Positions 1 through 20,811 of a DNA stretch of 64,000 bases are shown piece after piece (the first letter of the stretch is position 1; each line of letters opens with the position of its first letter). The notes under the pieces are model-generated. The model was not told where the DNA came from. It saw only the letters and a program-made list of their open reading frames with translations, and searched no databases. Origin of the DNA: Propionibacteriales bacterium (lineage in GTDB: Bacteria; Actinomycetota; Actinomycetes; Propionibacteriales; Nocardioidaceae); assembly GCA_038198775.1 (NCBI GenBank), contig JBBPZV010000043.1:54405-118404 (forward strand), given 5' to 3'. Position numbers and translations under genes: made by a program.

Positions 1-112
1 GCTGAGCCGCGCTGATCAGCATCAGCGCGAGGCCGAGGTTGTGCTGCTGGCCTTGCGGGGATTCGTCGGCGGGCGGAGGGGAAGCGCCGGCGGCGGCGGA
101 TTCCACGGACAT
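1..112 (-). CDS. MFS transporter, first ~37 codons only (mirror copy of 19255..19366). Cut by the window or arm edge.
   Basis: Mirror of the start of the 19255..20811 MFS gene. It runs off position 1. Confidence 0.5.
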   Translation of the reverse strand, partial: MSVESAAAGASPPPADESPQGQQHNLGLALMLISAAQ

Positions 113-134
113 GCGGGGCGTTCCTTTCGGTCGT

Positions 135-749
135 TCAGGGAGCTTCGTTCTCGGCGGTGTGGCATGCCGCGGGCACGACGACGTGCTCGATGGCGCGGCG
201 GACGAAGTCGTCGTCGATCTCGCCACCGAGTACGAACTCGTGGTAGCTGCACAGGGCCGGCAGGACGGTAGCGACCAGGTCGAGGTCGGCGTCTTCGGAT
301 ATCTCGCCCCTGGCCTGGGCGCGGGCGAACAGCTCGCGGGTGATCGCCATCCGTGGCAGCAAGAACCGCTGTCGGAAGGCGTGCGAGAGCTCGTCGTCGG
401 TGTGCAACGCCGTCATCACAGCACCGAGTACCGACATCGGCAGCTCGGCCGCCCAGCCGTGCTTGCCGCACGCCGTCGCCAGCAGGTCACCGCGCAACGT
501 GCCGGTGTTGGGCGAGGCGGCGTCAGGCATGCCCTTGGCGCGGGAGACCGCATCGACGACCAGGTCGGCCTTGCTCGACCAGCGGCGGTACAGCGTCGCC
601 TTGCTCGCCCTGGCTTCGGCGGCGACCTGGTCCATGGTGAGACGGTCGTAGCCGACCTCGGCCAGGGCCCTCAGTGTGGCGTTGAGCAGCTCGGTCTCGC
701 GGTCGCCGGTGACACGCGGGCGGCGCGGCCCGGTCGGAGTGGCCGGCAT
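135..749 (-). CDS. TetR/AcrR family transcriptional regulator (mirror copy of 18618..19232)
   Basis: 204 aa. The N-terminal HTH region reads TELLNATLRALAEVGYDRLTMDQVAAEARASKATLYRRWSSKADLV, which is typical of TetR_N. Confidence 0.85.
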   Translation of the reverse strand: MPATPTGPRRPRVTGDRETELLNATLRALAEVGYDRLTMDQVAAEARASKATLYRRWSSKADLVVDAVSRAKGMPDAASPNTGTLRGDLLATACGKHGWAAELPMSVLGAVMTALHTDDELSHAFRQRFLLPRMAITRELFARAQARGEISEDADLDLVATVLPALCSYHEFVLGGEIDDDFVRRAIEHVVVPAACHTAENEAP

Positions 750-765
750 GGGGGGTCCTCCAGTT

Positions 766-786
766 GGTACGAAACCGTTCTGTACC
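766..786. promoter_or_regulatory. Imperfect 21-bp palindrome, candidate TetR operator (mirror of 18581..18601)
   Basis: GGTACAGAAC-G-GTTTCGTACC, with 8/10 arm matches, lies 17 nt upstream of the tetR ATG and just 5' of a GGAGG RBS. Confidence 0.3.
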
Positions 787-855
787 GTGACAGCAAGGTA
801 GTGTCGGCTCGTGGCCGACGCAAGCTCAGCTGAACCAGACTCCAGGGACCGGCTG

Positions 856-957
856 ATGCCGCTGGTGGCGGGGGATGAGACCGCGGCGGCCTGGGGTGAC
901 CCGGAGGACGACCGGGACGAGGAGCTGCTGCGCGAGGTGCCGCCGCATCACGGTTGA
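856..957 (+). CDS. Small acidic hypothetical protein, 33 aa (MPLVAGDETAAAWGDPEDDRDEELLREVPPHHG)
   Basis: ATG..TGA ORF read by hand. It is below the ORF-track length cutoff and convergent with mscL. There is no other support. Confidence 0.2.
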   Translation: MPLVAGDETAAAWGDPEDDRDEELLREVPPHHG

Positions 958-960
958 CGC

Positions 961-1344
961 TCAGGCGTCGGATGCCTGCCGGCGCGCCAGGTGGTCCCGG
1001 ATTTCGCGCAGCAGCACGATCTCCTCCGAAGCCGCCTCGGCGGTCACCTCGCCGGGCTTCTTGAAGCGTTCCATGAGCTTGTTGTACGGAACGACGACGA
1101 GGAAATAGACCGCCGCGGCGATGACGAAAAAGGCCACGAGGTCGTTGATGAAGGCGCCGAGCGGGATGCCGTCGACCGTGACGGCGCCGAAGTCCGGACG
1201 GCCTCCGATACTGCCGATGAGCGGCATCATCAGGTTGGTGACGAAGGACGAAACGACGGTGGCGAACGCGGCCCCGACCACGAACGCGACCGCCAGCTCG
1301 ATGAGGTTGCCGCGCACGATGAAGTCCCGAAATCCCTTGAGCAT
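961..1344 (-). CDS. mscL: Large-conductance mechanosensitive channel (mirror copy)
   Basis: 127 aa. The sequence MLKGFRDFIVRGNLIELAVAFVVGAAF...MPLIG... is the hallmark MscL N-terminus and TM1. Confidence 0.9.
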   Translation of the reverse strand: MLKGFRDFIVRGNLIELAVAFVVGAAFATVVSSFVTNLMMPLIGSIGGRPDFGAVTVDGIPLGAFINDLVAFFVIAAAVYFLVVVPYNKLMERFKKPGEVTAEAASEEIVLLREIRDHLARRQASDA

Positions 1345-1388
1345 TGAGCGCCTCCTGACCGCCGGGACTCATCTTGCCAGTGAGCGGT

Positions 1389-2021
1389 TCAGGTCAACAG
1401 CAGGCTGAGCTGCTCGCGTACGGCCGCGTCTGCGAGCTCGAGTGCTGTCGGCTCGTCGACGGCGACCACGACCGCGGTGCCCTCGCTTCCCGCGGTCGCG
1501 GTGGCGGCTGGCGGCATGGCCACGACTCGGACGCCGCTGGCCACCACGTGGGCCGTGCCGCGGGCCTGCGGGTCTGCACCGACCACGTCGACGACGTCCC
1601 CGACGTGGACGAGGCTCTCCGCTGCGGGGTCCGCCACCCGGATCGTGGTGAGAACCGAGCCCTCCGGATAACCGGCGAGCAGGTCCGGCCGCAGCAGTCG
1701 GACGTCTGTCAGCGGCTCACCGGACCGCATCGGAGCGGCCACGACCGAGCCGAGCGTGGACTGGAATCCGGTGAGGGTGCCAGCGGGGACGCCGCCGGCC
1801 GGCCAGGCCACCCGCTCCACGTCTGCTGCCCGCAGGACCGCACCTGCTTGCAGGTCCCGCGCAGCCACCAGCACGGGCGTCGTCGCCGGTGGCGGGGGCC
1901 GGGCCGCCGAGATGGCGGTGACGACGGCCAGCGCGGCGCAGATCGCTGCCAGCGGTCGCCGCCGCACCACCACTGCGCGCCGAACCCCGGTTCCGAACGT
2001 CCGGAATCTGCTGGGGATCAC
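1389..2021 (-). CDS. SAF domain protein (CpaB/RcpC-like N-terminal domain), mirror copy
   Basis: 210 aa with an N-terminal TM segment, followed by VLVAARDLQAGAVLRAADVERVAWPAGGVP...PMRSGEPLTDVRLL, which is a SAF-domain pattern. Confidence 0.6.
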   Translation of the reverse strand: MIPSRFRTFGTGVRRAVVVRRRPLAAICAALAVVTAISAARPPPPATTPVLVAARDLQAGAVLRAADVERVAWPAGGVPAGTLTGFQSTLGSVVAAPMRSGEPLTDVRLLRPDLLAGYPEGSVLTTIRVADPAAESLVHVGDVVDVVGADPQARGTAHVVASGVRVVAMPPAATATAGSEGTAVVVAVDEPTALELADAAVREQLSLLLT

Positions 2022-2069
2022 ACCGCGACGCTAGCGCCGACAGGCCCTCTCGGCCCGCTGTCCACAGGC

Positions 2070-2399
2070 TCAGTCGGCCGAGTCCTTGGCAGGGGAGGAG
2101 GCAGCCTTTGTCGCGGCCGCGCCGGATTGCTTCGGCTTCCCGTCCTTGCCGCCGCCGGTCTCGTTCCCGGTCTTGGCCGGCTCCTGCGAGCCGGTGCCGT
2201 TCTCGGCCGCTGCCGACGCAGCGGCCCGGCTGTCGGTGCGATAGAAGCCGGAGCCCTTGAAGACCACTCCGACCGCACCGAACACCTTGCGAAGCCGACC
2301 CGCACATTCGGGGCACGTCGTCAGCGGGTCGTCGCGGAACGCCTGGCGGGCCTCCAGGGAGTGACCGCAGGATGTGCAGGCGTACTGGTAGGTGGGCAA
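2070..2399 (-). CDS. FmdB family zinc-ribbon protein (mirror copy)
   Basis: TTG start preceded by GAGGAGAG. The sequence (L)PTYQYACTSCGHSLEARQAFRDDPLTTCPECAGRLRKVFGAVGVVFKGSGFYRTD has a CxxC...CxxC ribbon and is followed by a Ser/Ala/Gly-rich tail. Confidence 0.8.
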   Translation of the reverse strand: MPTYQYACTSCGHSLEARQAFRDDPLTTCPECAGRLRKVFGAVGVVFKGSGFYRTDSRAAASAAAENGTGSQEPAKTGNETGGGKDGKPKQSGAAATKAASSPAKDSAD

Positions 2400-2559
2400 C
2401 GTCTCTCCTCGCTGGCACTGCGTCACTTCGACTGCCAATTGTGCCCGAGCGGTCAAGGCCAGGCCCGCCCATCGCCCAGATCTCGGACGGCCTCGCCGCG
2501 GCAGTGCGGCAAGGCTGGCGTTGTCGGCACCGCCGCCACCACCGAGACGCAGCATTCGG

Positions 2560-3219
2560 ATGCTGGGCACGGTCCACAATGGCGCTGTGACCGGGATCGT
2601 CGACCACATCGCCGGCCTGCCGGACCCGGTCGTCTACCTCGTCATCGCCGCGCTCGTCTTCGGTGAGGCGGCGATCTTCTTGGGGTTCGTGCTCCCAGGG
2701 GAGACGGCGGTGCTGCTGGGCGGGGTGCTCGCCGCCGGCGGCCGGCTCACGCTGTCGACGCTGCTGGTGCTGGTGGTCGTGGCGGCGATCGTCGGGGACT
2801 CCGTGGGATACGAGGTGGGCCGGCGGTTCGGACCCCGCGTGCTGGCCTGGCGACCGTTGCGCCGCCACGAGGCCAGACTCGGGGAGGCCCGCACGTACCT
2901 GCGCACCCGCGGCGGATGGGCGGTGATGCTCGGCCGGTGGACCGCGTTCCTACGAGCGGTCATGCCCGGTCTCGCTGGTGCCAGCCGGATGCCGTACCCA
3001 CGGTTCTTGTTCTTCAACGCCGTTGGCGGGGCGGTCTGGGCGGTGGCGATCGCGCTGCTCGGCTACTTCGCGGCGGCCTCCTACGGGCGGGTCCACGCCG
3101 CTCTCGGCCAGATCGGCGCCCTGGTGCTTGTGGCGGTGGTCGTGGTCGTGGTGATCGTCGCTCGCCGCCGACGGCGCGCCGGGCAAACTGGCCGTCCCGG
3201 TAGTCGGCCGGGTCCCTGA
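2560..3219 (+). CDS. DedA family membrane protein (mirror copy)
   Basis: ATG at 2560. The sequence VYLVIAALVFGEAAIFLGFVLPGETAVLLGGVLAA...GR.TAFLRAVMPGLAG is the SNARE-associated/DedA signature. The ORF-track N-terminal extension was rejected. Confidence 0.8.
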   Translation: MLGTVHNGAVTGIVDHIAGLPDPVVYLVIAALVFGEAAIFLGFVLPGETAVLLGGVLAAGGRLTLSTLLVLVVVAAIVGDSVGYEVGRRFGPRVLAWRPLRRHEARLGEARTYLRTRGGWAVMLGRWTAFLRAVMPGLAGASRMPYPRFLFFNAVGGAVWAVAIALLGYFAAASYGRVHAALGQIGALVLVAVVVVVVIVARRRRRAGQTGRPGSRPGP

Positions 3220-4059
3220 TGGGTCCAGCGCCTCGAAGGTGGCGAAGATGTCACCGGCCAGCGGCCGACTTGGCGGGCGGCCCTGCTCGACGAACCACTC
3301 GCGTCGCATCACCTGCCGATAGACCGGCCCTGGCAACCTCAGCAGCAGCCCGAGCGTACGCATACCGACGTCGGCGCTGGCCTGGCTGGCATGCGCCGCC
3401 ATCGCCGCGCGCTTGTTCGACAGGTACTCGCTGACGTCGATGCAGTGCGTCAGCCTCTGGTGCGCGGTGTACGCCGAGGACAGGTCTGGGATGTCGAGCC
3501 GTCGACCCGGCGGCAACCCGATGCGCAGCAGCCGGGCCGCTGCCTGCAGGGGGCGCCGATCCACGGTGGCGGCAAGCACGACCGGCGTCCGGGCGCGCGC
3601 AGCGGCGAGGATGCCGGCCCGGTGCACCATGACATGGTCGGGATGCCCATAACCTCCGGCCGGGTCGTAGCAGGTGAGCACGTCCGCGTTCTCCTCTCGC
3701 AGGATCGCGGCGAGTCGCTCCGCCACCTCCTCGACGTCGGCGCCGGCGAAGCCGTCGGCGGCGGGCGCTGTGCCCGGGTCCACGGACCAGCCCGAGTCGG
3801 CGTAGCCCCAGACGTCCACCCGGGCGCAGCCGATGGCTGCCGCCGAGCGCTGGAGCTCGACGCCGCGGTGCCGGCCGAGGTCCCCGGCGGCGGCTCCGGT
3901 GGCTGCCAGGCCTGCCTCGCCGGCGGTCGCGACCACGAGGACGACGCGGTGCCCCTCGGCGGCCGCCTTCGCCAGCGTGCCGGCGGTGAGCAAGGCTTCG
4001 TCGTCGGGGTGGGCGTGAAACGACACCACGGTCCGGCGGGGGGAGCACCCGGCGCTCAT
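2950..4059 (-). CDS. PIG-L/LmbE family N-acetylglucosaminyl deacetylase (mirror copy). The last ~90 codons are doubtful.
   Basis: VVSFHAHPDDEALLTAGT ... GGYGHPDHVMVH motifs. The C-terminal tail overlaps the convergent dedA gene by 270 nt. Confidence 0.7.
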   Translation of the reverse strand: MSAGCSPRRTVVSFHAHPDDEALLTAGTLAKAAAEGHRVVLVVATAGEAGLAATGAAAGDLGRHRGVELQRSAAAIGCARVDVWGYADSGWSVDPGTAPAADGFAGADVEEVAERLAAILREENADVLTCYDPAGGYGHPDHVMVHRAGILAAARARTPVVLAATVDRRPLQAAARLLRIGLPPGRRLDIPDLSSAYTAHQRLTHCIDVSEYLSNKRAAMAAHASQASADVGMRTLGLLLRLPGPVYRQVMRREWFVEQGRPPSRPLAGDIFATFEALDPSGTRPTTGTASLPGAPSAASDDHHDHDHRHKHQGADLAESGVDPPVGGRREVAEQRDRHRPDRPANGVEEQEPWVRHPAGTSETGHDRS

Positions 4060-5240
4060 GCCGAGGTGGGCAGGACGTCCTCTTCCGGCTCCTCCTCGGC
4101 CGTGACCGCGTCGACCGAGTGGCCGACCACACCCAGCGCCTGGTGGTACAGCTCCTCCGTCCGCTGCCAGGTCTCCTCCCAGGTGTAGCGGGTGGGGATC
4201 CGCCGGTTGTGCGCAGCGAGCGAACAGCGCAGCTCCCGGTCGCGCACCAGCCTGGTCAGCTGGTCGACCATGTCGTCGTCGGAGCCGGCCAGCAGGCCCT
4301 CCTCCCCGTGGGCGATGATCTCCGCGACCCCGCCACGGGTGCTCGCCAGCACCGGGACTCCCGCGCTCCTTGCCTCCAGGGCCGCTATTCCGAACGACTC
4401 CAGCGAGGCCGGAGCAACGTAGACACCCGTGCGGGAGAACAGTGCCGCGATGTCGGCGCGCGGCAGCACACCGGTCAGCCGCACCCAGCCGGCCATGTCG
4501 TGGCGACGCAGGTAGGCCGCAACCTTGGCGTGCTGTGGGCCGTCGCCTACGATGACCGCCTCCATTGCGACGTCGCCGGGCACCGCGGCGCGCACTCGGG
4601 CGAGCATGCGGACCAGCGGCAGCGGCCTTTTGCGACCCGCCAGCCGCATCACGCTGGCGATCACCACCGGATCCCCCGGCTCAGGGACGGCTGCCGGCAG
4701 CTGCCACTGGCTCAGGTCGATCGCGTTGGGCAGCACCGCCACCTCGCGACGCCCCCCCAGCATCCGCGCCAACGGCTGCGCTGCGGTCTCGCTCACCGCC
4801 GACCAGATGATCGGCAGCGATCCGATCCGGATCAGGCTCGCGATGGAGCCGACGAGCGCCCCGTACCCGGTGATCACCGAGTGCATCGTCACGACCACGG
4901 GGATCTCGTTGCGCCCGGCCGCGTGCGCGGCGGCAACTGCCACCGGTGAGGCGATCGAGGCATGGACGTGGACGACGTCGTAGCCGCCTGCGTTCACCGC
5001 CGCCGCGACTCCGGCAGCGGCACGCAGCGTCCGCAGCGTCGGCGAGGCGACATCGGGGCACAGCCTGCGCACCGCCGGCAGGCCGATGCCGACGGGCGCC
5101 TTCCCTGGTATCGGTGGGGTGGCCGTGATCACCTCGACCTCGTGGCCGGCCGCCAGCTGCCGGCAGGCGAGGTCGCGGACGTGCATCTCGATGCCGCCCA
5201 CCCGGGGCAGGTAGCAGTCGCTGACATGGGCGATGCGCAT
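4056..5240 (-). CDS. Glycosyltransferase family 4 (GT-B), mirror copy
   Basis: Start MRIAHVSDCYLPRVGGIEMHV, and a C-terminal ESFGIAALEARSAGVPVLASTRGGVAEII (EX7E). TGATG overlap with the upstream gene. Confidence 0.8.
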   Translation of the reverse strand: MRIAHVSDCYLPRVGGIEMHVRDLACRQLAAGHEVEVITATPPIPGKAPVGIGLPAVRRLCPDVASPTLRTLRAAAGVAAAVNAGGYDVVHVHASIASPVAVAAAHAAGRNEIPVVVTMHSVITGYGALVGSIASLIRIGSLPIIWSAVSETAAQPLARMLGGRREVAVLPNAIDLSQWQLPAAVPEPGDPVVIASVMRLAGRKRPLPLVRMLARVRAAVPGDVAMEAVIVGDGPQHAKVAAYLRRHDMAGWVRLTGVLPRADIAALFSRTGVYVAPASLESFGIAALEARSAGVPVLASTRGGVAEIIAHGEEGLLAGSDDDMVDQLTRLVRDRELRCSLAAHNRRIPTRYTWEETWQRTEELYHQALGVVGHSVDAVTAEEEPEEDVLPTSA

Positions 5241-6316
5241 CAAGCGCCTTCCGCCGTGGCCCAACGTCGAGCGATCAGCGCATGGCGGTGGCTCCAGGCC
5301 CAACCGAGCAGCACGGCGGAGCCGACCGGAATCTCCAGGCCGAAGGTGAAGGCGCGATAGAGCAGCACCCCTGCGGTGCTGAGCACCGGGTCGCCGTGCA
5401 GGGCGATGAGCAGCGAGGTCATGCCGATCTCGGCAAAACCCGTGCCTCCGGGGGTGACGAACGCCAGCGTTAGCACGCGCTCGAGGGCGTACGCGGCGAC
5501 CAGAGGAACCAGCCCGAGGTCGACACCGAGCACATGGAAGGTCAGCCAGAGCAGCTCGAGCTGGAGCAGGCAGTAGCCGATCATGCCGAACGAAAGCGCC
5601 GGCCAGGCCGTTTTGATCCGGCCGACGGCGACCGTACGGAATTCCGCCAGCGCCGCCTGGAATCGGTGCTCCGGCACCCCCGAGCCACCCGGAAGCTGGC
5701 ACCTGACCCGGTCGGCGAACGACCCGAGCCGAGCGGCGGCGTCGGCGTGCACCAGCACCACCGCGGCCAGCAGTACGAGAAGGCCGACCGCCACCATTGC
5801 CGCTGCGGCCGCGACCATCAGGTGCGCCGCCAGGTTGCCGGCCAGCAGCACGAGGAGCAGCCCGGCGATGGCGAGGGCGAACTTGGCGGCGATGTCGCAC
5901 AGGTTCGTGATCGCCGTGTACACGGCGAACGACTGGGCGCTGAACCCCCAGACCCGCGCCATCAGGTAGTTCAGTCCGACGCCCGCGGCGCCGCCGAGGG
6001 GTACGAGTCCGGCCACGGCGCTGCCGGTGAGGTTCAGCGTCAGTGCCCGCCGGTGCGTCAACCTCGGCTGCGCCGCCGTCAAGACGATGGTGTGCACGCA
6101 CAACCCGGCCAGCCAGACGGTGGCCAGCAGTGCCAGGCGACCGGGGGTCAGCGCGGCCAGCGGACTCAGGACGGCACTCCACGGCACCGAGGTCACCCGC
6201 GGGAGTACGGTGACCAGCAGGGCGGCTGCCAGGGCCGCGCCGGCAACGGCGCCGACCACCCGACGGACCCGTCGGGTGGCGGCGCGGGGTTCGCCCTCGA
6301 CCAGCGACGATCTCAC
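5240..6316 (-). CDS. UPF0104 / lysylphosphatidylglycerol-synthase TM-region family membrane protein (mirror copy)
   Basis: 358 aa polytopic membrane protein translationally coupled to the GT4. The family call rests on overall pattern only. Confidence 0.55.
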   Translation of the reverse strand: MRSSLVEGEPRAATRRVRRVVGAVAGAALAAALLVTVLPRVTSVPWSAVLSPLAALTPGRLALLATVWLAGLCVHTIVLTAAQPRLTHRRALTLNLTGSAVAGLVPLGGAAGVGLNYLMARVWGFSAQSFAVYTAITNLCDIAAKFALAIAGLLLVLLAGNLAAHLMVAAAAAMVAVGLLVLLAAVVLVHADAAARLGSFADRVRCQLPGGSGVPEHRFQAALAEFRTVAVGRIKTAWPALSFGMIGYCLLQLELLWLTFHVLGVDLGLVPLVAAYALERVLTLAFVTPGGTGFAEIGMTSLLIALHGDPVLSTAGVLLYRAFTFGLEIPVGSAVLLGWAWSHRHALIARRWATAEGA

Positions 6317-6438
6317 GGGCTCTCCCTCGGGGCCGCCGTCCAGCCGGTGGTCTCCAGCCGGGTACTACATGGTCGATAGTAGCGCCGCGCCGCCGGGACC
6401 GCTCTCCCGCACGGAGGCTACGCAGGGAGAATAGCGGG

Positions 6439-8970
6439 ATGCGCCGGTCCTGGAGAGTCGCCGCGGCCGTCCTGGCGGTCGTGGCGCTCGCATTGGCCGC
6501 GGCCGTGGGCTACGTGGTCGCCTCGGTGCGCCAGTCGTACCCGCTGACGTCGGGGGAGCTCTCGGTCCCTGGTCTGCAGCAGCCGGTGGAGGTGCTGCGC
6601 GACCGAGCCGGCGTCCCGCAGGTCTACGCCGACACCGCACACGACCTGTTCTTCGCGCAGGGGTACGTCAGCGCTCAGGATCGCTTCTTCGAGATGGACT
6701 TCCGCCGGCACGTCACCTCGGGTCGCCTGAGCGAGCTGTTCGGCCCGAGCGCGCTCCAGACCGACATGGTGGTGCGCACCCTGGGGTGGCGCCGGGTCGC
6801 CGAGCGAGAGCTGGCCATCCTCGACCCCATGACGCGCCGCTACCTGCAGGCGTACTCGGACGGCGTCAACGCCTATCTGCGGGGCAAGTCGGGTCCGGAC
6901 CTCTCGTTCGAGTACGCAGTGCTGTCGCTGACCGGGCCCGACTACGCGCCAGAGGGGTGGTCGCCGGCGGACTCCGTGGCCTGGCTCAAGGCGATGGCGT
7001 GGGACCTGCGCAGCAACGTCTCCGACGAGATCGACCGGGCCCTCGCGAATCAGACGCTGTCGCCGACCCAGGTCGAGCAGCTATACCCGCGCTACCCGTA
7101 CACCCGGCACTACCCGATCGTGACCGCGGGACAGGTCGGACAGGCCGGGTTACGTTCCGCCCAGGTCCGCCGGCTGCACCGGTCGGCGGCACGGCTGCCG
7201 CTGCGGGCGGGCCGTGTGATGTCAGCCATCCCCGGCCTGCTCGACGCGGTGCCCGCACTGCTGGGCACCGGGGGCGGGCTCGGGTCGAACTCGTGGGCGG
7301 TGTCCGGGCGGCGCTCGGCGACCGGCGGCCCGATCCTCGCCAACGACCCCCACCTGGCCCCCTCGATGCCCGCCGTGTGGTACCAGATGGGGCTGCACTG
7401 TCGTCACGTCGGCGCCGGCTGCCCCTTCGACGTGTCCGGGTTCACGTTCGCCGGCATGCCCGGGGTCGTCATCGGCCACAACCAGCGCATCGCGTGGGGC
7501 TTGACCACGATGTACGCAGACGTCAGCGACCTCTACCTCGAGCGCGTCGACGACCAGGCCGGGACGTACCTGTTCGACGGCCGGCAACGGCGACTGAGGA
7601 CGCGGCCGGAGTCGATCCGGGTCGAGGGTCGCGACCAGCCGGTAACCATCACCGTACGATCCACCCGGGACGGCCCACTGCTCTCCGACGTCGTCGACGA
7701 GTTCGCCGCCGCCGGCCGAGCGTCGGCGACGGGCCGCAGCACCGGGGCCAACGCGGTGGCGCTGCGGTGGACGGCACTCACCCCCGGCCACACCATGGAC
7801 GCGGTCTTCGGCATCGACAAGGCGACGTCGTGGTCGCGGTTCCGGCAGGCGGCGAAGTCGTTCGACGTGCCGTCTCAGAACCTCGTCTACGCCGACGTCG
7901 ACGGTCACATCGGCTACCAGGCTCCCGGGCAGATCCCGGTCCGATCCGGCTACGACGGCCGCTGGCCGGTGCCCGGCTGGAACCCCCGCTACGACTGGAC
8001 CGGCTACGTCCCCTTCGCGGCGCTGCCGTCGGTCCTCGACCCGGCGTCGGGGTACGTCGTCACCGCCAACCAGGCCGTCGTCGCACCCGGCTACCCCTAC
8101 CGGCTCGGAGGTGACACCTCGTACGGCTACCGCAGTCAGCGGATTATCGAGCTGCTCAACGCCAAGGCCACCCACGACGTCGCCGACATGGCGGCCCTGC
8201 AGCGTGACAGCTACAACGCCAACGCCGCCGAGCTGGTGCCGTACCTGCGACGGATCGAGGTTTCGACGACCTACTACCGGCAGGGCCAGCGGGTGTTGCG
8301 CGGCTGGGACTTCACTCAGCCGGCGGACTCGGGCGCCGCGGCGTACTTCAACGTGGTCTGGCGGGACCTGCTGGCGCGCACGTTCCACGACCAGCTGCCG
8401 CCGGCGGTGTGGCCGGACGGCGACGAGCGGTGGTTCGAGGTGGTGCGCCGGCTGCTGCACGACCCGACCAGCCCCTGGTGGGACGACGTCAACACCGACG
8501 CCGTCGTGGAGACGCGGAACGACATCCTGCTGGCGGCGCTGGAGGAGGGTCGCGACGACATGACGCGGTTGCAGGCCCGGGATCCCACCCAGTGGAGCTG
8601 GGGACACCTGCACCGGCTCGAGCTGGTCAACCCGACCCTCGGGACCTCCGGTACCGGGCTCGTCGAGTCGCTGTTCAACCGCGGGCCCTACCAGCTCGGT
8701 GGCGGGAGCGGCACCGTCGACGCCACAGCGTGGGACGCGGCGCAGGGGTTCGCCGTGACCGCCGTGCCGTCTATGCGGATGGTGGTGTCGCTGGCCGACC
8801 TCGACAGCTCGCGCTGGGCGATGATCGCAGGTGAGTCGGGGCACGCGTACTCCGCCCACTACAGCGACCAGATGCCGCTGTGGGTCGACGGCGAGACCCG
8901 GCCGTGGGCCTTCAGCCGGGGCGCCGTCGAAGCGTCGACCCAGGACCGGCTGGTGTTGCAGCCGTCCTGA
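6439..8970 (+). CDS. Penicillin acylase family Ntn-hydrolase (mirror copy)
   Basis: 843 aa with an N-terminal TM anchor. It contains RFFEMDFRR and the GLGSNSWAVSGRRSATGGPILANDPHL nucleophile region. Confidence 0.85.
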   Translation: MRRSWRVAAAVLAVVALALAAAVGYVVASVRQSYPLTSGELSVPGLQQPVEVLRDRAGVPQVYADTAHDLFFAQGYVSAQDRFFEMDFRRHVTSGRLSELFGPSALQTDMVVRTLGWRRVAERELAILDPMTRRYLQAYSDGVNAYLRGKSGPDLSFEYAVLSLTGPDYAPEGWSPADSVAWLKAMAWDLRSNVSDEIDRALANQTLSPTQVEQLYPRYPYTRHYPIVTAGQVGQAGLRSAQVRRLHRSAARLPLRAGRVMSAIPGLLDAVPALLGTGGGLGSNSWAVSGRRSATGGPILANDPHLAPSMPAVWYQMGLHCRHVGAGCPFDVSGFTFAGMPGVVIGHNQRIAWGLTTMYADVSDLYLERVDDQAGTYLFDGRQRRLRTRPESIRVEGRDQPVTITVRSTRDGPLLSDVVDEFAAAGRASATGRSTGANAVALRWTALTPGHTMDAVFGIDKATSWSRFRQAAKSFDVPSQNLVYADVDGHIGYQAPGQIPVRSGYDGRWPVPGWNPRYDWTGYVPFAALPSVLDPASGYVVTANQAVVAPGYPYRLGGDTSYGYRSQRIIELLNAKATHDVADMAALQRDSYNANAAELVPYLRRIEVSTTYYRQGQRVLRGWDFTQPADSGAAAYFNVVWRDLLARTFHDQLPPAVWPDGDERWFEVVRRLLHDPTSPWWDDVNTDAVVETRNDILLAALEEGRDDMTRLQARDPTQWSWGHLHRLELVNPTLGTSGTGLVESLFNRGPYQLGGGSGTVDATAWDAAQGFAVTAVPSMRMVVSLADLDSSRWAMIAGESGHAYSAHYSDQMPLWVDGETRPWAFSRGAVEASTQDRLVLQPS

Positions 8971-8997
8971 GCCCCGACCTGCTGCCGTGCTTGCGCT

Positions 8998-9597: not shown

Positions 9598-9649
9598 GCG
9601 GTCACGGTAGTGCGAGGTTGGATGTCTTGCCGCTTCCGATCGGCCGGTG

Positions 9650-9717
9650 CTTCCAATGGCGCAGCGGCACTTCCAACGGGTTGCAACCCGTTGGAAGTGC
9701 CGCTGCGCCATTGGAAG
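9650..9717. repeat. Copy A of the three-box element, made perfectly symmetric by the palindrome (box3'-box2' | box2-box3)
   Basis: CTTCCAATGG(9650-9659) ... CTTCCAACGG(9670-9679) GGTTGCAA CCGTTGGAAG(9688-9697) ... CCATTGGAAG(9708-9717). Confidence 0.9.
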
Positions 9718-12928: not shown

Positions 12929-13050
12929 CCCGCTATTCTCCCTGCGTAGCCTCCGTGCGGGAGAGCGGTCCCGGCGGCGCGGCGCTACTATCGACCATGT
13001 AGTACCCGGCTGGAGACCACCGGCTGGACGGCGGCCCCGAGGGAGAGCCC

Positions 13051-14127: not shown

Positions 14128-15311
14128 TGCGCATCGCCCATGTCAGCGACTGCTACCTGCCCCGGGTGGGCGGCATCGAGATGCACGTCCGCGACCTCGC
14201 CTGCCGGCAGCTGGCGGCCGGCCACGAGGTCGAGGTGATCACGGCCACCCCACCGATACCAGGGAAGGCGCCCGTCGGCATCGGCCTGCCGGCGGTGCGC
14301 AGGCTGTGCCCCGATGTCGCCTCGCCGACGCTGCGGACGCTGCGTGCCGCTGCCGGAGTCGCGGCGGCGGTGAACGCAGGCGGCTACGACGTCGTCCACG
14401 TCCATGCCTCGATCGCCTCACCGGTGGCAGTTGCCGCCGCGCACGCGGCCGGGCGCAACGAGATCCCCGTGGTCGTGACGATGCACTCGGTGATCACCGG
14501 GTACGGGGCGCTCGTCGGCTCCATCGCGAGCCTGATCCGGATCGGATCGCTGCCGATCATCTGGTCGGCGGTGAGCGAGACCGCAGCGCAGCCGTTGGCG
14601 CGGATGCTGGGGGGGCGTCGCGAGGTGGCGGTGCTGCCCAACGCGATCGACCTGAGCCAGTGGCAGCTGCCGGCAGCCGTCCCTGAGCCGGGGGATCCGG
14701 TGGTGATCGCCAGCGTGATGCGGCTGGCGGGTCGCAAAAGGCCGCTGCCGCTGGTCCGCATGCTCGCCCGAGTGCGCGCCGCGGTGCCCGGCGACGTCGC
14801 AATGGAGGCGGTCATCGTAGGCGACGGCCCACAGCACGCCAAGGTTGCGGCCTACCTGCGTCGCCACGACATGGCCGGCTGGGTGCGGCTGACCGGTGTG
14901 CTGCCGCGCGCCGACATCGCGGCACTGTTCTCCCGCACGGGTGTCTACGTTGCTCCGGCCTCGCTGGAGTCGTTCGGAATAGCGGCCCTGGAGGCAAGGA
15001 GCGCGGGAGTCCCGGTGCTGGCGAGCACCCGTGGCGGGGTCGCGGAGATCATCGCCCACGGGGAGGAGGGCCTGCTGGCCGGCTCCGACGACGACATGGT
15101 CGACCAGCTGACCAGGCTGGTGCGCGACCGGGAGCTGCGCTGTTCGCTCGCTGCGCACAACCGGCGGATCCCCACCCGCTACACCTGGGAGGAGACCTGG
15201 CAGCGGACGGAGGAGCTGTACCACCAGGCGCTGGGTGTGGTCGGCCACTCGGTCGACGCGGTCACGGCCGAGGAGGAGCCGGAAGAGGACGTCCTGCCCA
15301 CCTCGGCATGA
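14127..15311 (+). CDS. Glycosyltransferase family 4
   Basis: As for 4056..5240. The 314-codon N-terminal extension in the ORF track (13185..) overlaps the upstream gene and was rejected. Confidence 0.8.
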   Translation: MRIAHVSDCYLPRVGGIEMHVRDLACRQLAAGHEVEVITATPPIPGKAPVGIGLPAVRRLCPDVASPTLRTLRAAAGVAAAVNAGGYDVVHVHASIASPVAVAAAHAAGRNEIPVVVTMHSVITGYGALVGSIASLIRIGSLPIIWSAVSETAAQPLARMLGGRREVAVLPNAIDLSQWQLPAAVPEPGDPVVIASVMRLAGRKRPLPLVRMLARVRAAVPGDVAMEAVIVGDGPQHAKVAAYLRRHDMAGWVRLTGVLPRADIAALFSRTGVYVAPASLESFGIAALEARSAGVPVLASTRGGVAEIIAHGEEGLLAGSDDDMVDQLTRLVRDRELRCSLAAHNRRIPTRYTWEETWQRTEELYHQALGVVGHSVDAVTAEEEPEEDVLPTSA

Positions 15312-16417
15312 GCGCCGGGTGCTCCCCCCGCCGGACCGTGGTGTCGTTTCACGCCCACCCCGACGACGAAGCCTTGCTCACCGCCGGCACGCTGGCGAAG
15401 GCGGCCGCCGAGGGGCACCGCGTCGTCCTCGTGGTCGCGACCGCCGGCGAGGCAGGCCTGGCAGCCACCGGAGCCGCCGCCGGGGACCTCGGCCGGCACC
15501 GCGGCGTCGAGCTCCAGCGCTCGGCGGCAGCCATCGGCTGCGCCCGGGTGGACGTCTGGGGCTACGCCGACTCGGGCTGGTCCGTGGACCCGGGCACAGC
15601 GCCCGCCGCCGACGGCTTCGCCGGCGCCGACGTCGAGGAGGTGGCGGAGCGACTCGCCGCGATCCTGCGAGAGGAGAACGCGGACGTGCTCACCTGCTAC
15701 GACCCGGCCGGAGGTTATGGGCATCCCGACCATGTCATGGTGCACCGGGCCGGCATCCTCGCCGCTGCGCGCGCCCGGACGCCGGTCGTGCTTGCCGCCA
15801 CCGTGGATCGGCGCCCCCTGCAGGCAGCGGCCCGGCTGCTGCGCATCGGGTTGCCGCCGGGTCGACGGCTCGACATCCCAGACCTGTCCTCGGCGTACAC
15901 CGCGCACCAGAGGCTGACGCACTGCATCGACGTCAGCGAGTACCTGTCGAACAAGCGCGCGGCGATGGCGGCGCATGCCAGCCAGGCCAGCGCCGACGTC
16001 GGTATGCGTACGCTCGGGCTGCTGCTGAGGTTGCCAGGGCCGGTCTATCGGCAGGTGATGCGACGCGAGTGGTTCGTCGAGCAGGGCCGCCCGCCAAGTC
16101 GGCCGCTGGCCGGTGACATCTTCGCCACCTTCGAGGCGCTGGACCCATCAGGGACCCGGCCGACTACCGGGACGGCCAGTTTGCCCGGCGCGCCGTCGGC
16201 GGCGAGCGACGATCACCACGACCACGACCACCGCCACAAGCACCAGGGCGCCGATCTGGCCGAGAGCGGCGTGGACCCGCCCGTAGGAGGCCGCCGCGAA
16301 GTAGCCGAGCAGCGCGATCGCCACCGCCCAGACCGCCCCGCCAACGGCGTTGAAGAACAAGAACCGTGGGTACGGCATCCGGCTGGCACCAGCGAGACCG
16401 GGCATGACCGCTCGTAG
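15308..16417 (+). CDS. PIG-L/LmbE family deacetylase (C-terminal ~90 codons doubtful)
   Basis: As for 2950..4059. ATGA-type 4-nt overlap with the GT4 stop. Confidence 0.7.
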   Translation: MSAGCSPRRTVVSFHAHPDDEALLTAGTLAKAAAEGHRVVLVVATAGEAGLAATGAAAGDLGRHRGVELQRSAAAIGCARVDVWGYADSGWSVDPGTAPAADGFAGADVEEVAERLAAILREENADVLTCYDPAGGYGHPDHVMVHRAGILAAARARTPVVLAATVDRRPLQAAARLLRIGLPPGRRLDIPDLSSAYTAHQRLTHCIDVSEYLSNKRAAMAAHASQASADVGMRTLGLLLRLPGPVYRQVMRREWFVEQGRPPSRPLAGDIFATFEALDPSGTRPTTGTASLPGAPSAASDDHHDHDHRHKHQGADLAESGVDPPVGGRREVAEQRDRHRPDRPANGVEEQEPWVRHPAGTSETGHDRS

Positions 16418-16807
16418 GAACGCGGTCCACCGGCCGAGCATCACCGCCCATCCGCCGCGGGTGCGCAGGTACGTGCGGGCCTCCCCGAGTCTGGCCTCGT
16501 GGCGGCGCAACGGTCGCCAGGCCAGCACGCGGGGTCCGAACCGCCGGCCCACCTCGTATCCCACGGAGTCCCCGACGATCGCCGCCACGACCACCAGCAC
16601 CAGCAGCGTCGACAGCGTGAGCCGGCCGCCGGCGGCGAGCACCCCGCCCAGCAGCACCGCCGTCTCCCCTGGGAGCACGAACCCCAAGAAGATCGCCGCC
16701 TCACCGAAGACGAGCGCGGCGATGACGAGGTAGACGACCGGGTCCGGCAGGCCGGCGATGTGGTCGACGATCCCGGTCACAGCGCCATTGTGGACCGTGC
16801 CCAGCAT
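16148..16807 (-). CDS. DedA family membrane protein
   Basis: As for 2560..3219. Confidence 0.8.
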   Translation of the reverse strand: MLGTVHNGAVTGIVDHIAGLPDPVVYLVIAALVFGEAAIFLGFVLPGETAVLLGGVLAAGGRLTLSTLLVLVVVAAIVGDSVGYEVGRRFGPRVLAWRPLRRHEARLGEARTYLRTRGGWAVMLGRWTAFLRAVMPGLAGASRMPYPRFLFFNAVGGAVWAVAIALLGYFAAASYGRVHAALGQIGALVLVAVVVVVVIVARRRRRAGQTGRPGSRPGP

Positions 16808-16967
16808 CCGAATGCTGCGTCTCGGTGGTGGCGGCGGTGCCGACAACGCCAGCCTTGCCGCACTGCCGCGGCGAGGCCGTCCGAGATCTGGGCGATGGGC
16901 GGGCCTGGCCTTGACCGCTCGGGCACAATTGGCAGTCGAAGTGACGCAGTGCCAGCGAGGAGAGACG

Positions 16968-17297
16968 TTGCCCACCTACCAGTACGCCTGCACATCCTGC
17001 GGTCACTCCCTGGAGGCCCGCCAGGCGTTCCGCGACGACCCGCTGACGACGTGCCCCGAATGTGCGGGTCGGCTTCGCAAGGTGTTCGGTGCGGTCGGAG
17101 TGGTCTTCAAGGGCTCCGGCTTCTATCGCACCGACAGCCGGGCCGCTGCGTCGGCAGCGGCCGAGAACGGCACCGGCTCGCAGGAGCCGGCCAAGACCGG
17201 GAACGAGACCGGCGGCGGCAAGGACGGGAAGCCGAAGCAATCCGGCGCGGCCGCGACAAAGGCTGCCTCCTCCCCTGCCAAGGACTCGGCCGACTGA
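16968..17297 (+). CDS. FmdB family zinc-ribbon protein
   Basis: As for 2070..2399. Confidence 0.8.
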   Translation: MPTYQYACTSCGHSLEARQAFRDDPLTTCPECAGRLRKVFGAVGVVFKGSGFYRTDSRAAASAAAENGTGSQEPAKTGNETGGGKDGKPKQSGAAATKAASSPAKDSAD

Positions 17298-17345
17298 GCC
17301 TGTGGACAGCGGGCCGAGAGGGCCTGTCGGCGCTAGCGTCGCGGT

Positions 17346-17978
17346 GTGATCCCCAGCAGATTCCGGACGTTCGGAACCGGGGTTCGGCGCGCAGTGGTGG
17401 TGCGGCGGCGACCGCTGGCAGCGATCTGCGCCGCGCTGGCCGTCGTCACCGCCATCTCGGCGGCCCGGCCCCCGCCACCGGCGACGACGCCCGTGCTGGT
17501 GGCTGCGCGGGACCTGCAAGCAGGTGCGGTCCTGCGGGCAGCAGACGTGGAGCGGGTGGCCTGGCCGGCCGGCGGCGTCCCCGCTGGCACCCTCACCGGA
17601 TTCCAGTCCACGCTCGGCTCGGTCGTGGCCGCTCCGATGCGGTCCGGTGAGCCGCTGACAGACGTCCGACTGCTGCGGCCGGACCTGCTCGCCGGTTATC
17701 CGGAGGGCTCGGTTCTCACCACGATCCGGGTGGCGGACCCCGCAGCGGAGAGCCTCGTCCACGTCGGGGACGTCGTCGACGTGGTCGGTGCAGACCCGCA
17801 GGCCCGCGGCACGGCCCACGTGGTGGCCAGCGGCGTCCGAGTCGTGGCCATGCCGCCAGCCGCCACCGCGACCGCGGGAAGCGAGGGCACCGCGGTCGTG
17901 GTCGCCGTCGACGAGCCGACAGCACTCGAGCTCGCAGACGCGGCCGTACGCGAGCAGCTCAGCCTGCTGTTGACCTGA
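17346..17978 (+). CDS. SAF domain protein (CpaB/RcpC-like)
   Basis: As for 1389..2021. Confidence 0.6.
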   Translation: MIPSRFRTFGTGVRRAVVVRRRPLAAICAALAVVTAISAARPPPPATTPVLVAARDLQAGAVLRAADVERVAWPAGGVPAGTLTGFQSTLGSVVAAPMRSGEPLTDVRLLRPDLLAGYPEGSVLTTIRVADPAAESLVHVGDVVDVVGADPQARGTAHVVASGVRVVAMPPAATATAGSEGTAVVVAVDEPTALELADAAVREQLSLLLT

Positions 17979-18022
17979 ACCGCTCACTGGCAAGATGAGT
18001 CCCGGCGGTCAGGAGGCGCTCA

Positions 18023-18406
18023 ATGCTCAAGGGATTTCGGGACTTCATCGTGCGCGGCAACCTCATCGAGCTGGCGGTCGCGTTCGTGGTCGGGGCCGCG
18101 TTCGCCACCGTCGTTTCGTCCTTCGTCACCAACCTGATGATGCCGCTCATCGGCAGTATCGGAGGCCGTCCGGACTTCGGCGCCGTCACGGTCGACGGCA
18201 TCCCGCTCGGCGCCTTCATCAACGACCTCGTGGCCTTTTTCGTCATCGCCGCGGCGGTCTATTTCCTCGTCGTCGTTCCGTACAACAAGCTCATGGAACG
18301 CTTCAAGAAGCCCGGCGAGGTGACCGCCGAGGCGGCTTCGGAGGAGATCGTGCTGCTGCGCGAAATCCGGGACCACCTGGCGCGCCGGCAGGCATCCGAC
18401 GCCTGA
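18023..18406 (+). CDS. mscL: Large-conductance mechanosensitive channel
   Basis: As for 961..1344. Confidence 0.9.
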   Translation: MLKGFRDFIVRGNLIELAVAFVVGAAFATVVSSFVTNLMMPLIGSIGGRPDFGAVTVDGIPLGAFINDLVAFFVIAAAVYFLVVVPYNKLMERFKKPGEVTAEAASEEIVLLREIRDHLARRQASDA

Positions 18407-18409
18407 GCG

Positions 18410-18511
18410 TCAACCGTGATGCGGCGGCACCTCGCGCAGCAGCTCCTCGTCCCGGTCGTCCTCCGGGTCACCCCAGGCCGCCGCGGTCTCATCCCCCGCC
18501 ACCAGCGGCAT
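18410..18511 (-). CDS. Small acidic hypothetical protein, 33 aa
   Basis: Mirror of 856..957. Confidence 0.2.
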   Translation of the reverse strand: MPLVAGDETAAAWGDPEDDRDEELLREVPPHHG

Positions 18512-18580
18512 CAGCCGGTCCCTGGAGTCTGGTTCAGCTGAGCTTGCGTCGGCCACGAGCCGACACTACCTTGCTGTCAC

Positions 18581-18601
18581 GGTACAGAACGGTTTCGTAC
18601 C
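18581..18601. promoter_or_regulatory. Imperfect palindrome GGTACAGAACGGTTTCGTACC, candidate TetR operator
   Basis: Lies immediately upstream of the RBS and ATG (18618) of tetR. The tetR-MFS genes are co-oriented with a 22-nt gap. Confidence 0.3.
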
Positions 18602-18617
18602 AACTGGAGGACCCCCC

Positions 18618-19232
18618 ATGCCGGCCACTCCGACCGGGCCGCGCCGCCCGCGTGTCACCGGCGACCGCGAGACCGAGCTGCTCAACGCCACACTGAGGGC
18701 CCTGGCCGAGGTCGGCTACGACCGTCTCACCATGGACCAGGTCGCCGCCGAAGCCAGGGCGAGCAAGGCGACGCTGTACCGCCGCTGGTCGAGCAAGGCC
18801 GACCTGGTCGTCGATGCGGTCTCCCGCGCCAAGGGCATGCCTGACGCCGCCTCGCCCAACACCGGCACGTTGCGCGGTGACCTGCTGGCGACGGCGTGCG
18901 GCAAGCACGGCTGGGCGGCCGAGCTGCCGATGTCGGTACTCGGTGCTGTGATGACGGCGTTGCACACCGACGACGAGCTCTCGCACGCCTTCCGACAGCG
19001 GTTCTTGCTGCCACGGATGGCGATCACCCGCGAGCTGTTCGCCCGCGCCCAGGCCAGGGGCGAGATATCCGAAGACGCCGACCTCGACCTGGTCGCTACC
19101 GTCCTGCCGGCCCTGTGCAGCTACCACGAGTTCGTACTCGGTGGCGAGATCGACGACGACTTCGTCCGCCGCGCCATCGAGCACGTCGTCGTGCCCGCGG
19201 CATGCCACACCGCCGAGAACGAAGCTCCCTGA
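18618..19232 (+). CDS. TetR/AcrR family transcriptional regulator
   Basis: As for 135..749. Confidence 0.85.
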   Translation: MPATPTGPRRPRVTGDRETELLNATLRALAEVGYDRLTMDQVAAEARASKATLYRRWSSKADLVVDAVSRAKGMPDAASPNTGTLRGDLLATACGKHGWAAELPMSVLGAVMTALHTDDELSHAFRQRFLLPRMAITRELFARAQARGEISEDADLDLVATVLPALCSYHEFVLGGEIDDDFVRRAIEHVVVPAACHTAENEAP

Positions 19233-19254
19233 ACGACCGAAAGGAACGCCCCGC

Positions 19255-20811
19255 ATGTCCGTGGAATCCGCCGCCGCCGGCGCTTCCCCTCCGCCCGCCG
19301 ACGAATCCCCGCAAGGCCAGCAGCACAACCTCGGCCTCGCGCTGATGCTGATCAGCGCGGCTCAGCTGATGGTGGTGCTCGACGCCACGGTGGTCAACAT
19401 CGCACTGCCCCACATCAAGGCAGAACTCGGCTTCAGTGCCTCTAACCTGACCTGGGTCGTCACCTCATACAGCATCGCCTTCGGCGGCCTGCTGCTGCTC
19501 GGTGGCCGGATGGGGGACATCCTCGGGCGCCGCAAGGTGTTCATGGCGGGTGTGCTGATCTTTGCGCTGGCCTCGCTTTTCGGCGGGCTCGCGCAGTCGG
19601 AGTGGCAGATCTTGTCCGCCCGGGCGCTGCAGGGGCTCGGAGCGGCCGCGGCCTCGCCCACGGCGCTGGCGCTTATCACGACCACCTTCCCGGCGGGACC
19701 TCCTCGTAACCGGGCCTTCGCCGTCTACGCCGCGATGTCTGGTGCCGGCGCGGCCGTCGGCCTTATCGTCGGCGGGGCGCTCACCGAGGCGTCCTGGCGT
19801 TGGACGATGCTCATCAACGTCCCGATCGGCGTGCTCGCCGCCGCCTTGGCACCGCGGTTGTTGAACGAGTCGGAGCCGCGGCCCGGAAGGTTCGACGTTG
19901 CCGGCGCCGTCACCGCCACCTTGGGCCTGGTCGGGATCGTGTACGGCTTCAACCACAAGGCGCAGACGATTCCGGGGACCACTCCGCCGCAGCCGTACGC
20001 CTGGACCGACTCTTGGACTGTGGGCCCCATCGTCGCCGGAGTCGTGCTGCTGACCTCCTTCTTCGTGATCGAGGCGCGCTCTCGCCACCCGCTGCTGCCG
20101 ATGAGGATCATCCGCGACCGCACCCGCGGCATCAGCTTCGTCTCGATGCTGCTGATCGGCACGGCGCTGTTCGCGATGTTCTTGTTCCTCTCGCTCTACA
20201 TCCAAGACGTGCTGGGCTACAGCCCGATCAGGGCCGGACTGGCGTTCTTGCCGTTCAGCTTCGCGATCGTGGCGTCGGCCCAGCTGGCGTCCGCGCTGGC
20301 CTCCCGGGTCGACCCACGCTGGATCGCCGGCGGTGGCGGTTCCCTCGCAGCCCTCGGGATGTGGGGCTTCAGCCGGCTCGAGTACGACTCGTCGTATTGG
20401 GTGCACCTGCTCCCGTGGATCTTGGTGATGGCGGCCGGCATGGGGTTGGTCTTCGTGCCGTTGACCCTCACCGCGCTCAGTCGCGTCGACGCGGCCGACT
20501 CCGGAGTCGGCTCCGCGGTGTTGAACACCGTCCAACAGATCGGCGGGGCGGTGGGGATCGCGCTGCTCGGCACCGTCTACGCCAACGGCATCAGCGACAA
20601 GTTCACCCAGCTGCGAGCTGCCGGGACCGGCGCGCCGCCGTCGCGCGAGCAGATGCAGACGAGCAGCCTGATCGCGCAGACCTACGGCTCCACCCAGGCC
20701 TTCACCGTCGCCATCCTCATCGTGGCCGCGTCAGCCGTTATCACACTGATACTGCTCGACATCAAGCACGAGCGGCTAGCCACCGACGGGGCGCCCGGCG
20801 CTCCTGGCTGA
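19255..20811 (+). CDS. MFS transporter, DHA2 (EmrB/QacA-like, 14-TMS type) drug:H+ antiporter
   Basis: ATG at 19255. The sequence LALMLISAAQLMVVLDATVVNIALPHI ... LLGGRMGDILGRRKVF is typical of DHA2, and the product is about 518 aa. The palindrome ends inside this gene at 19366. Confidence 0.85.
   Translation: MSVESAAAGASPPPADESPQGQQHNLGLALMLISAAQLMVVLDATVVNIALPHIKAELGFSASNLTWVVTSYSIAFGGLLLLGGRMGDILGRRKVFMAGVLIFALASLFGGLAQSEWQILSARALQGLGAAAASPTALALITTTFPAGPPRNRAFAVYAAMSGAGAAVGLIVGGALTEASWRWTMLINVPIGVLAAALAPRLLNESEPRPGRFDVAGAVTATLGLVGIVYGFNHKAQTIPGTTPPQPYAWTDSWTVGPIVAGVVLLTSFFVIEARSRHPLLPMRIIRDRTRGISFVSMLLIGTALFAMFLFLSLYIQDVLGYSPIRAGLAFLPFSFAIVASAQLASALASRVDPRWIAGGGGSLAALGMWGFSRLEYDSSYWVHLLPWILVMAAGMGLVFVPLTLTALSRVDAADSGVGSAVLNTVQQIGGAVGIALLGTVYANGISDKFTQLRAAGTGAPPSREQMQTSSLIAQTYGSTQAFTVAILIVAASAVITLILLDIKHERLATDGAPGAPG

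Follow-up and report, generated by a model that had tools for sequence, protein, structure and literature searches.

The first 19.4 kb of a 64,000-nt stretch of actinobacterial DNA (contig JBBPZV010000043.1 of the Propionibacteriales bacterium assembly GCA_038198775.1; the whole stretch is hereafter called the window) form a perfect palindrome, which raises the question of whether this structure belongs to the genome or was made during sequencing and assembly. An earlier reading of the same DNA, the original prediction, had proposed three origins for it: a contig-end fold-back chimera, reads that passed through the covalently closed hairpin end of a linear replicon, or a very recent palindromic duplication. 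Our analysis indicates that the palindrome is probably a contig-end fold-back artefact of sequencing or assembly rather than a structure of the genome, and when a variant produced by the assembler's walk through its graph is included, an artefactual origin becomes very probable.

When reverse-complemented, positions 1..9683 of the window match 9684..19366 throughout (0 mismatches in 9683 positions), and no spacer separates the two, so that the palindrome spans 19.4 kb in total (1..19366) and its left arm is bounded by the window start alone. The per-base match probability in the window is about 0.30, and a run of 9,683 matches is therefore beyond chance. The junction 9683/9684 (hereafter the axis) is the sole long palindrome centre in the window, and no other long repeats were found in it. 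The G+C content is about 72% across the window, and the composition is steady at the axis and at 19366. The two arms are as follows:

1..9683 (no strand): left arm, 0 mismatches to the reverse complement of 9684..19366, running off window position 1.
9684..19366 (no strand): right arm, extending by its Pfam matches from the 5-formyltetrahydrofolate cyclo-ligase (FTHFCL) gene to the start of an MFS transporter gene, continuous with unique sequence from 19367.

The perfect, spacer-less palindrome announced in the original prediction was thus reproduced at every one of the 9,683 positions, and the coordinates of the mirrored open reading frames (ORFs) do sum to 19367 for the pairs that it quoted. 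Its ten ordinary duplicated genes correspond to the approximately ten complete genes that we counted per arm, and the left arm does run off position 1, ending only because the window ends. The quoted centre was correct in having no spacer but has to be moved one base to the left, to AACGGGTTG/CAACCCGTT. The right arm is a genuine chromosomal segment, and the left arm is probably an artefactual copy appended to the contig end.

We then considered the gene order at the axis, which precedes the FTHFCL start codon by 86 nt. Arm genes were defined by Pfam matches plus gene calls on independent k-mer contigs from Logan (described below), and the two genes nearest the axis are:

9770..10369 (+): FTHFCL gene (PF01812, E=6e-27), first gene right of the axis.
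10397..12928 (-): penicillin amidase family gene (PF01804, E=1e-244).

The 199-aa FTHFCL product was called identically on Logan contig SRR24807094_314812, and the amidase gene is convergent with FTHFCL, as in relatives (80 related loci). The order in relatives is MscL, a SAF-domain protein, a Zn-ribbon protein, amidase and FTHFCL, followed by a divergent galU, which encodes a UDPGP-type UTP-glucose-1-phosphate uridylyltransferase; past galU come moeA, moaC, a MoCF gene and an acetyltransferase gene. Among the 72 related loci with room beyond the amidase, FTHFCL comes next in 56, and a UDPGP gene lies within 5 kb in 26 of these 56 FTHFCL-bearing loci, mostly those of the nearest, non-Streptomyces relatives. 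The FTHFCL/galU-moeA order is present in L004, L084, L086, L087, L090 and L091 and is contiguous in every relative examined, with an FTHFCL-galU intergenic distance of 24-154 nt. UDPGP and moeA were found nowhere in the 64-kb window. Since galU and moeA are missing from the window and the axis is only 86 nt from FTHFCL, the palindrome starts exactly where the conserved core-gene block should continue. The earlier claim that the true neighbour of FTHFCL is missing is supported, the conserved FTHFCL-galU order being cut at the axis, and the gene order of relatives leads us to expect that this neighbour is a UDPGP-type galU.

The axis itself coincides with a short inverted repeat, which is separated from FTHFCL by the rest of its upstream region:

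9675..9692 (no strand): 18-nt perfect palindrome AACGGGTTG/CAACCCGTT, centred on the axis.
9693..9769 (+): FTHFCL upstream remainder, between the 18-nt palindrome and the start codon, with three TYGGAAG motifs.

Hairpin fold prediction gave the 18-mer a 7-bp stem and a 4-nt loop. Four further perfect 9+9 palindromes were found in the other 54 kb of the window, and at this density (about 4 per 54 kb) a seed at the axis site is commonplace. The three TYGGAAG motifs, at 9691, 9711 and 9728 with spacings of 20 and 17 nt, lie between the axis and the FTHFCL start; elsewhere, in the other 44.6 kb, the motif has 4 occurrences on both strands. To judge from its position, the trio may be a regulatory direct repeat of the FTHFCL/galU divergent promoter region.

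A palindrome centred on a short inverted repeat could also have arisen in living cells, as a real snap-back palindromic duplication present in part of the natural population alongside the normal FTHFCL-galU chromosome. By this route, a double-strand break by the 18-nt palindrome would be followed by resection, the 3' end would fold back and prime synthesis, and the hairpin-capped arm would replicate into a large palindrome; the product could be a linear or amplified extrachromosomal element, either hairpin-capped or replicated. An axis centred on an apparently natural 9+9 palindrome is the signature of this mechanism too, and zero divergence between the arms fits a very recent event. A short inverted repeat stands exactly at the centre, as in vivo snap-back demands, yet this is equally true of an artefact made in vitro, where the same signature arises. 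In addition, long perfect palindromes are unstable in bacteria, since SbcCD-type nucleases cut those that lack a spacer, which do not propagate stably. Palindromes do form in vivo at short inverted repeats, as in Tetrahymena rDNA, in gene amplification in yeast and tumours, and in rearrangements of E. coli sbcCD mutants, and these resemble the present case in having a central short inverted repeat, identical arms and no spacer beyond the seed. They are backed by copy number, Southern blots or deep junction reads, whereas here the in vivo and in vitro origins are not separable on such grounds.

To compare the window with an independent construction from reads, we used the contigs of Logan, which are built per run from a k=31 de Bruijn graph, with singleton k-mers dropped, each 31-mer kept once and contigs <150 bp unreported (PMC12424806). 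Nine proteins, six from the arm and three encoded at the right window end or past it, were residue-identical in the NCBI record and in Logan runs SRR24807094/SRR24807095. The Logan contigs, 1.4-12 kb in length, were 100% identical to the window across all overlaps (about 27 kb in total) and match the left and right arm equally well. In window coordinates, with no strand assigned and 100% identity throughout, they are:

9675..12385: Logan contig L003.
12359..19502: Logan contig L001.
17968..19429: Logan contig L002.
46326..50055: Logan contig L085.
About 53.1-66.6 kb: Logan contigs L088 and L089.

At the outer edge of the palindrome, L001 and L002, which come from two runs, both continue unbroken through 19366/19367. 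The absence of a graph branch at 19366 indicates that the reads hold no second unique flank, and without a second flank the left arm either ends, as at a contig end, or goes on as a mirror image. A palindrome embedded between two unique flanks was rejected on this ground. For a snap-back duplication in vivo this is an unfavourable result, since the arm ends at the end of the window or contig and not at a second junction.

At the axis, L003 stops at 9675, 9 nt past the centre. Given that breaks occur every few kb, the chance of a contig break within ±15 nt of the axis is about 1%, which indicates that the SRR24807094 read set registers the axis. We simulated the k=31 graph under three conditions. 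A pure palindrome, equivalent to a hairpin end, gave a unitig ending 15 nt past the axis, at a self-reverse-complement loop; a fold-back together with a second continuation sharing h nt gave a unitig ending exactly h nt past the axis; and the natural sequence alone gave no unitig end at the axis. The observed end at 9 nt instead of 15 therefore points to a branch, with two sequences left of 9675 in SRR24807094, both carrying AACGGGTTG. In terms of this graph model, we infer that a second, natural continuation past the axis exists in the reads; at the 9675 end it would start N+AACGGGTTGCAACCCGTTGGAAGTGCCGCT. Because L003 ends 9 nt past the axis, the 18-mer would be natural sequence, and the same model suggests that it served as the snap-back seed. 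The 36-nt hairpin unitig falls below 150 bp and would go unreported by Logan. By our own reasoning, even a single fold-back read passes the abundance filter, as each junction k-mer is contributed twice, once per strand. A coverage dead end at 9675 would also give a value of 9, and it would need either a precise DNA end in a core-gene block or a coincidence of about 1%. A single-nucleotide polymorphism bubble was rejected as the cause of the L003 end, since L003 continues unbroken right of 9705.

L001 and L003 overlap by 27 nt (12359-12385) and not by 30, within the conserved amidase motif WLKAMAWD. Such an overlap implies a shared 33-nt unitig and thus other amidase homologues in the run, indicating a community (metagenome) sample.

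The branch at the axis also bears on the two biological explanations. The Logan graph of SRR24807094 seems to hold a fold-back junction plus another continuation, as a mixed population would, and this accords with snap-back in vivo; one chimeric read is nevertheless enough to supply the junction k-mers, and fold-back artefacts are frequent. Weighing these points together, we regard a duplication formed in vivo as unlikely. Read-through of a covalently closed hairpin telomere, with 9683/9684 as the molecular end of a linear replicon like those of Borrelia, phage N15 or Agrobacterium, fares worse. In its favour, a hairpin end traversed by a long read would show up at the end of a contig as exactly such a spacer-less perfect palindrome, and the axis is indeed where the conserved synteny breaks off. 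A pure palindrome, however, predicts a k=31 end 15 nt past the axis and not the observed 9 nt, and the axis splits a core block running from MscL through FTHFCL to galU, moeA and moaC, so that galU and moeA would be left stranded by a telomere at this site. No resolvase-like domain was found: Pfam scans of about 46 ORFs, covering the 64-kb window only, returned no telomere resolvase of the ResT/TelN/TelK/TelA family. The sole resolvase-related enzyme is an ordinary bacterial type IB topoisomerase, which lies 35 kb from the axis:

44574..45659 (+): type IB topoisomerase (PF01028 and PF21338).

Actinomycetota are not known to have hairpin telomeres; their linear replicons carry terminal proteins. 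The locus thus resembles the hairpin telomeres of Borrelia, the Agrobacterium linear chromosome and phage N15 in that a perfect inverted duplication without spacer stands at a probable contig end, and it differs from them in its core chromosomal genes, the missing galU-moeA continuation, a k-mer end at 9 and not 15 nt, and the lack of a resolvase among the genes scanned. On the 9-nt contig end, the core-gene context and the absence of a resolvase from the roughly 46 ORFs, the hairpin-end proposal of the original prediction is disfavoured, and we consider it very improbable. Streptomyces-type terminal inverted repeats were also rejected, since these sit at opposite replicon ends and do not form a fold-back, and the genes here are core genes.

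The proposal listed first in the original prediction, a fold-back chimera at a contig end, is the best supported by the broken synteny, the lack of a second flank, the end of L003 at 9 nt past the axis and the continuation of the contig to the right. In the real chromosome, galU would be followed by a divergent intergenic region containing the natural 18-nt palindrome AACGGGTTGCAACCCGTT, and then by FTHFCL, amidase and the genes on to MscL, TetR and MFS. A DNA fragment may have broken at or next to this palindrome, and its single-stranded 3' end may then have snapped back as the hairpin with a 7-bp stem and a 4-nt loop, to be filled in or ligated during library preparation; a fold-back read of the template followed by its complement would be an equivalent route. 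The resulting molecule or read would follow one strand and then return directly along its complement, without a spacer. With the assembly broken at the intergenic site and no competing path, the assembler would extend the free contig end along the fold-back, presumably for the length of the second half of the fold-back read (9,683 nt), and consensus building or polishing with the same reads would make the arms identical.

Several observations agree with this sequence of events. The arms are identical and abut directly, without adapter or spacer, as expected of a fold-back artefact, and the assembly does break at the FTHFCL-galU site, where the contig lacks the galU side and the k-mer contig comes to an end as well. 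Among Oxford Nanopore Technologies (ONT) reads of genomic DNA, about 0.55-0.6% are spacer-less fold-backs, which occur repeatedly at the same sites, and in many ONT fold-back reads no bases separate the halves (PMC12870357). Inverted-repeat chimeras account for 0.18-7.33% of ligation-library nanopore reads, microbial standards included (PMC13141652). According to these two reports, the halves of long-read fold-back chimeras lie on opposite strands of the same place, often with nothing between them, as they do here (PMC12870357, PMC13141652). The present palindrome shares with such chimeras its perfection, its lack of a spacer, its probable position at a contig end and its single unique flank. 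It also resembles the palindromes of phi29 whole-genome amplification and end repair, in which a short inverted repeat self-primes and the palindrome is centred on that repeat. Whole-genome amplification yields artificial palindromes in long reads, and the program Pacasus was written to correct them (PMC6218980). Unlike the phi29 cases, the mechanism here is deduced from the axis position only, and there is no evidence of sample amplification.

A related explanation places the error in the assembler: a few chimeric junction reads would create a hairpin edge in the graph, and the same unitig would be walked out and back. Junction k-mers are apparently present in SRR24807094, and the NCBI contig is 100% identical to the Logan contigs wherever tested (about 27 kb), both of which speak for this explanation. 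A walk back along a unitig should, however, stop at a branch, and none is present at 19366 in the k=31 contigs, whose ends are at 19429 and 19502. This favours a read-length limit over a unitig limit for the arm end. Within the same alternative, the window might be internal to its contig and the palindrome much longer than 19.4 kb, in keeping with a left arm bounded only by the window start. The extent of the contig speaks against this. The source contig at NCBI has a length of 128,174 nt. It also encodes a 331-aa protein whose gene, on L089, lies 642-1,637 nt past the right end of the window (position 64000). At least 1,637 nt of the contig thus follow the window, which cannot be the last 64-kb tile, since a last tile would leave no more than 174 nt behind it. 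A window that is the first tile, with position 1 as the contig start, agrees with this, although it is not thereby proven. Taken jointly, a graph walk and a longer palindrome seem slightly less likely even than duplication in vivo, and the graph walk is a variant of the artefact explanation and not a biological alternative.

Several points weigh against a contig-end fold-back artefact. Position 1 is not proven to be a contig end, and if it is internal, the arms exceed 9.7 kb, a length that one chimeric read explains less well. In the survey of PMC12870357, PacBio HiFi showed virtually no fold-back reads. The break at the intergenic site in both the NCBI and Logan contigs is explained only by the fold-back itself, and if SRR24807094/95 are short reads from an independent library, junction k-mers in them would place fold-back molecules in more than one library and so favour a real DNA structure. 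The natural FTHFCL-galU junction was not directly seen in this organism. Finally, the candidate galU described below is assigned to the same assembly on circumstantial grounds.

We searched for the missing neighbour among relatives. In a comparison with 185,579 species genomes (GTDB representatives), the nearest relatives among the matches listed belong to Mumia, Nocardioides and Kribbella or to uncultured Actinomycetota, with 52-62% amidase identity, so the species itself appears to be absent from that set. The closest locus found is a JGI metagenome contig (L084), with 72% amidase and 67% FTHFCL identity, and all FTHFCL homologues besides the query's own entry are at most 67% identical. Judged by these protein comparisons, the organism is an uncultured actinobacterium of a sparsely sampled lineage, with Nocardioidaceae/Kribbella-like nearest relatives at about 55-72% amino-acid identity. 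A 462-aa UDPGP protein (P0131; N-terminus MRSVSGDGLTRAQRRM...), recorded in NCBI only, comes from a contig of 24,928 nt and shares 77% identity with the galU product of L084, as expected for the organism of the window. No FTHFCL homologue among the top matches lies on a contig of this length, which would be explained if that contig ended just upstream of galU. P0131 and the window's own NCBI contig are both absent from the contig index, in which three other NCBI proteins are present. Circumstantially, these findings suggest that P0131 is the missing galU neighbour, on a separate contig of the same assembly. The N-terminal 174 aa of P0131 matched nothing above 71% identity among Logan fragments, in a search that returned only proteins of 160-305 aa and may have missed shorter fragments. 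Another protein, P0159, was rejected as a source of the natural junction because it belongs to another metagenome-assembled genome (MAG), GCA_973374265.1. An exact-pattern scan of JGI metagenomes with a 29-mer spanning the 18-nt palindrome gave 0 matches.

With an artefact as the best-supported origin, the practical advice of the original prediction to count only one arm is upheld, and the first 9,683 nt of the contig should be trimmed. Left in place, they count about 10 genes twice, inflating duplication and contamination estimates for the MAG, and add one spurious truncated MFS fragment. They also make FTHFCL appear to have lost its conserved neighbour galU, which is probably at the end of another contig in the same assembly. 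The comparison with k-mer contigs further provides a cheap, read-free test for palindromes: a contig that stops (k-1)/2 nt past the axis indicates a true palindrome and one that stops after fewer indicates a branch, and the second part of the test is whether the outer edge branches. Were the duplication nevertheless real and formed in vivo, the locus would offer a direct environmental snapshot of rare natural bacterial palindrome formation at a short inverted repeat, in an uncultured Nocardioidaceae-like actinobacterium.

Beyond the amidase, the genes of the right arm, each based on a Pfam match or gene call, are as follows:

13051..14127 (+): LPG_synthase_TM gene.
14127..15311 (+): GT4 glycosyltransferase gene.
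15308..16417 (+): PIG-L gene.
16148..16975 (-): VTT/DedA-domain ORF (E=3.5e-18).
16404..16733 (+): 109-aa ORF, with no Pfam match, called on a Logan contig.
16968..17297 (+): Zn-ribbon gene.
17394..17978 (+): gene for a 194-aa protein, its position matching the SAF-domain gene of relatives.
18023..18406 (+): MscL gene.
18618..19232 (+): TetR gene.
19255..20811 (+): MFS transporter gene (PF07690, E=2e-54; gene call on L001).

The outer edge of the palindrome at 19366 falls 112 nt into the MFS gene, so that the copy in the left arm (1..112, minus strand) is a truncated fragment. The minus-strand VTT/DedA ORF overlaps the 3' third of the PIG-L ORF as well as the 109-aa plus-strand ORF, an annotation conflict. 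The LPG_synthase_TM, GT4 and PIG-L genes, together with the VTT/DedA ORF, form a cassette at 13051-16975 between the amidase and Zn-ribbon genes. The closest relatives, L084 and L086, lack the LPG_synthase_TM/GT4/PIG-L cassette at that position, and it looks like a lineage-specific insertion into the conserved block.

The remaining window has ordinary chromosomal genes, which encode NADH-dehydrogenase/Mrp-like subunits, a P-type ATPase, esterases, a polysaccharide-synthesis cluster and the bacterial type IB topoisomerase mentioned above, and no plasmid or phage character was found in the window genes. A signalling protein of about 880 aa is encoded at 21859-24549 (-) and combines an adenylate/guanylate cyclase domain, a STAND/AAA NTPase domain and TPR repeats; near it, at 26182..27180, lies the gene for a cNMP-binding-domain protein.

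The original prediction had also pointed to a homopolymer frameshift at 47585-47590 as possible support for an assembly error. We found a C6 run there (G6 on the coding strand), in a HemolysinCabind-type repeat gene at 47501..48130/48397 (-). With one G fewer, this gene would end in ...LTGGGTDVCEIDPGDTATTCEL and a stop codon, in a frame with the usual high third-position G+C, so the run and a plausible frame change were both verified. L085, from SRR24807094, carries the same C6/G6 run length, which indicates a real mutation or a systematic read error and not an assembler-specific indel, and the run therefore lends no support to an artefactual palindrome. A second C6 run, directly followed by a G9 run, lies at 47463-47480 inside a G+C-rich inverted repeat, GCCGCCGCGTCCCCCCGGGGGGGGGATAACGCGGCGGC, between a Laminin_G_3-domain gene and the HemolysinCabind gene. 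From its sequence and location this inverted repeat may be a terminator, and its C6/G9 tract is another possible site of homopolymer length errors.

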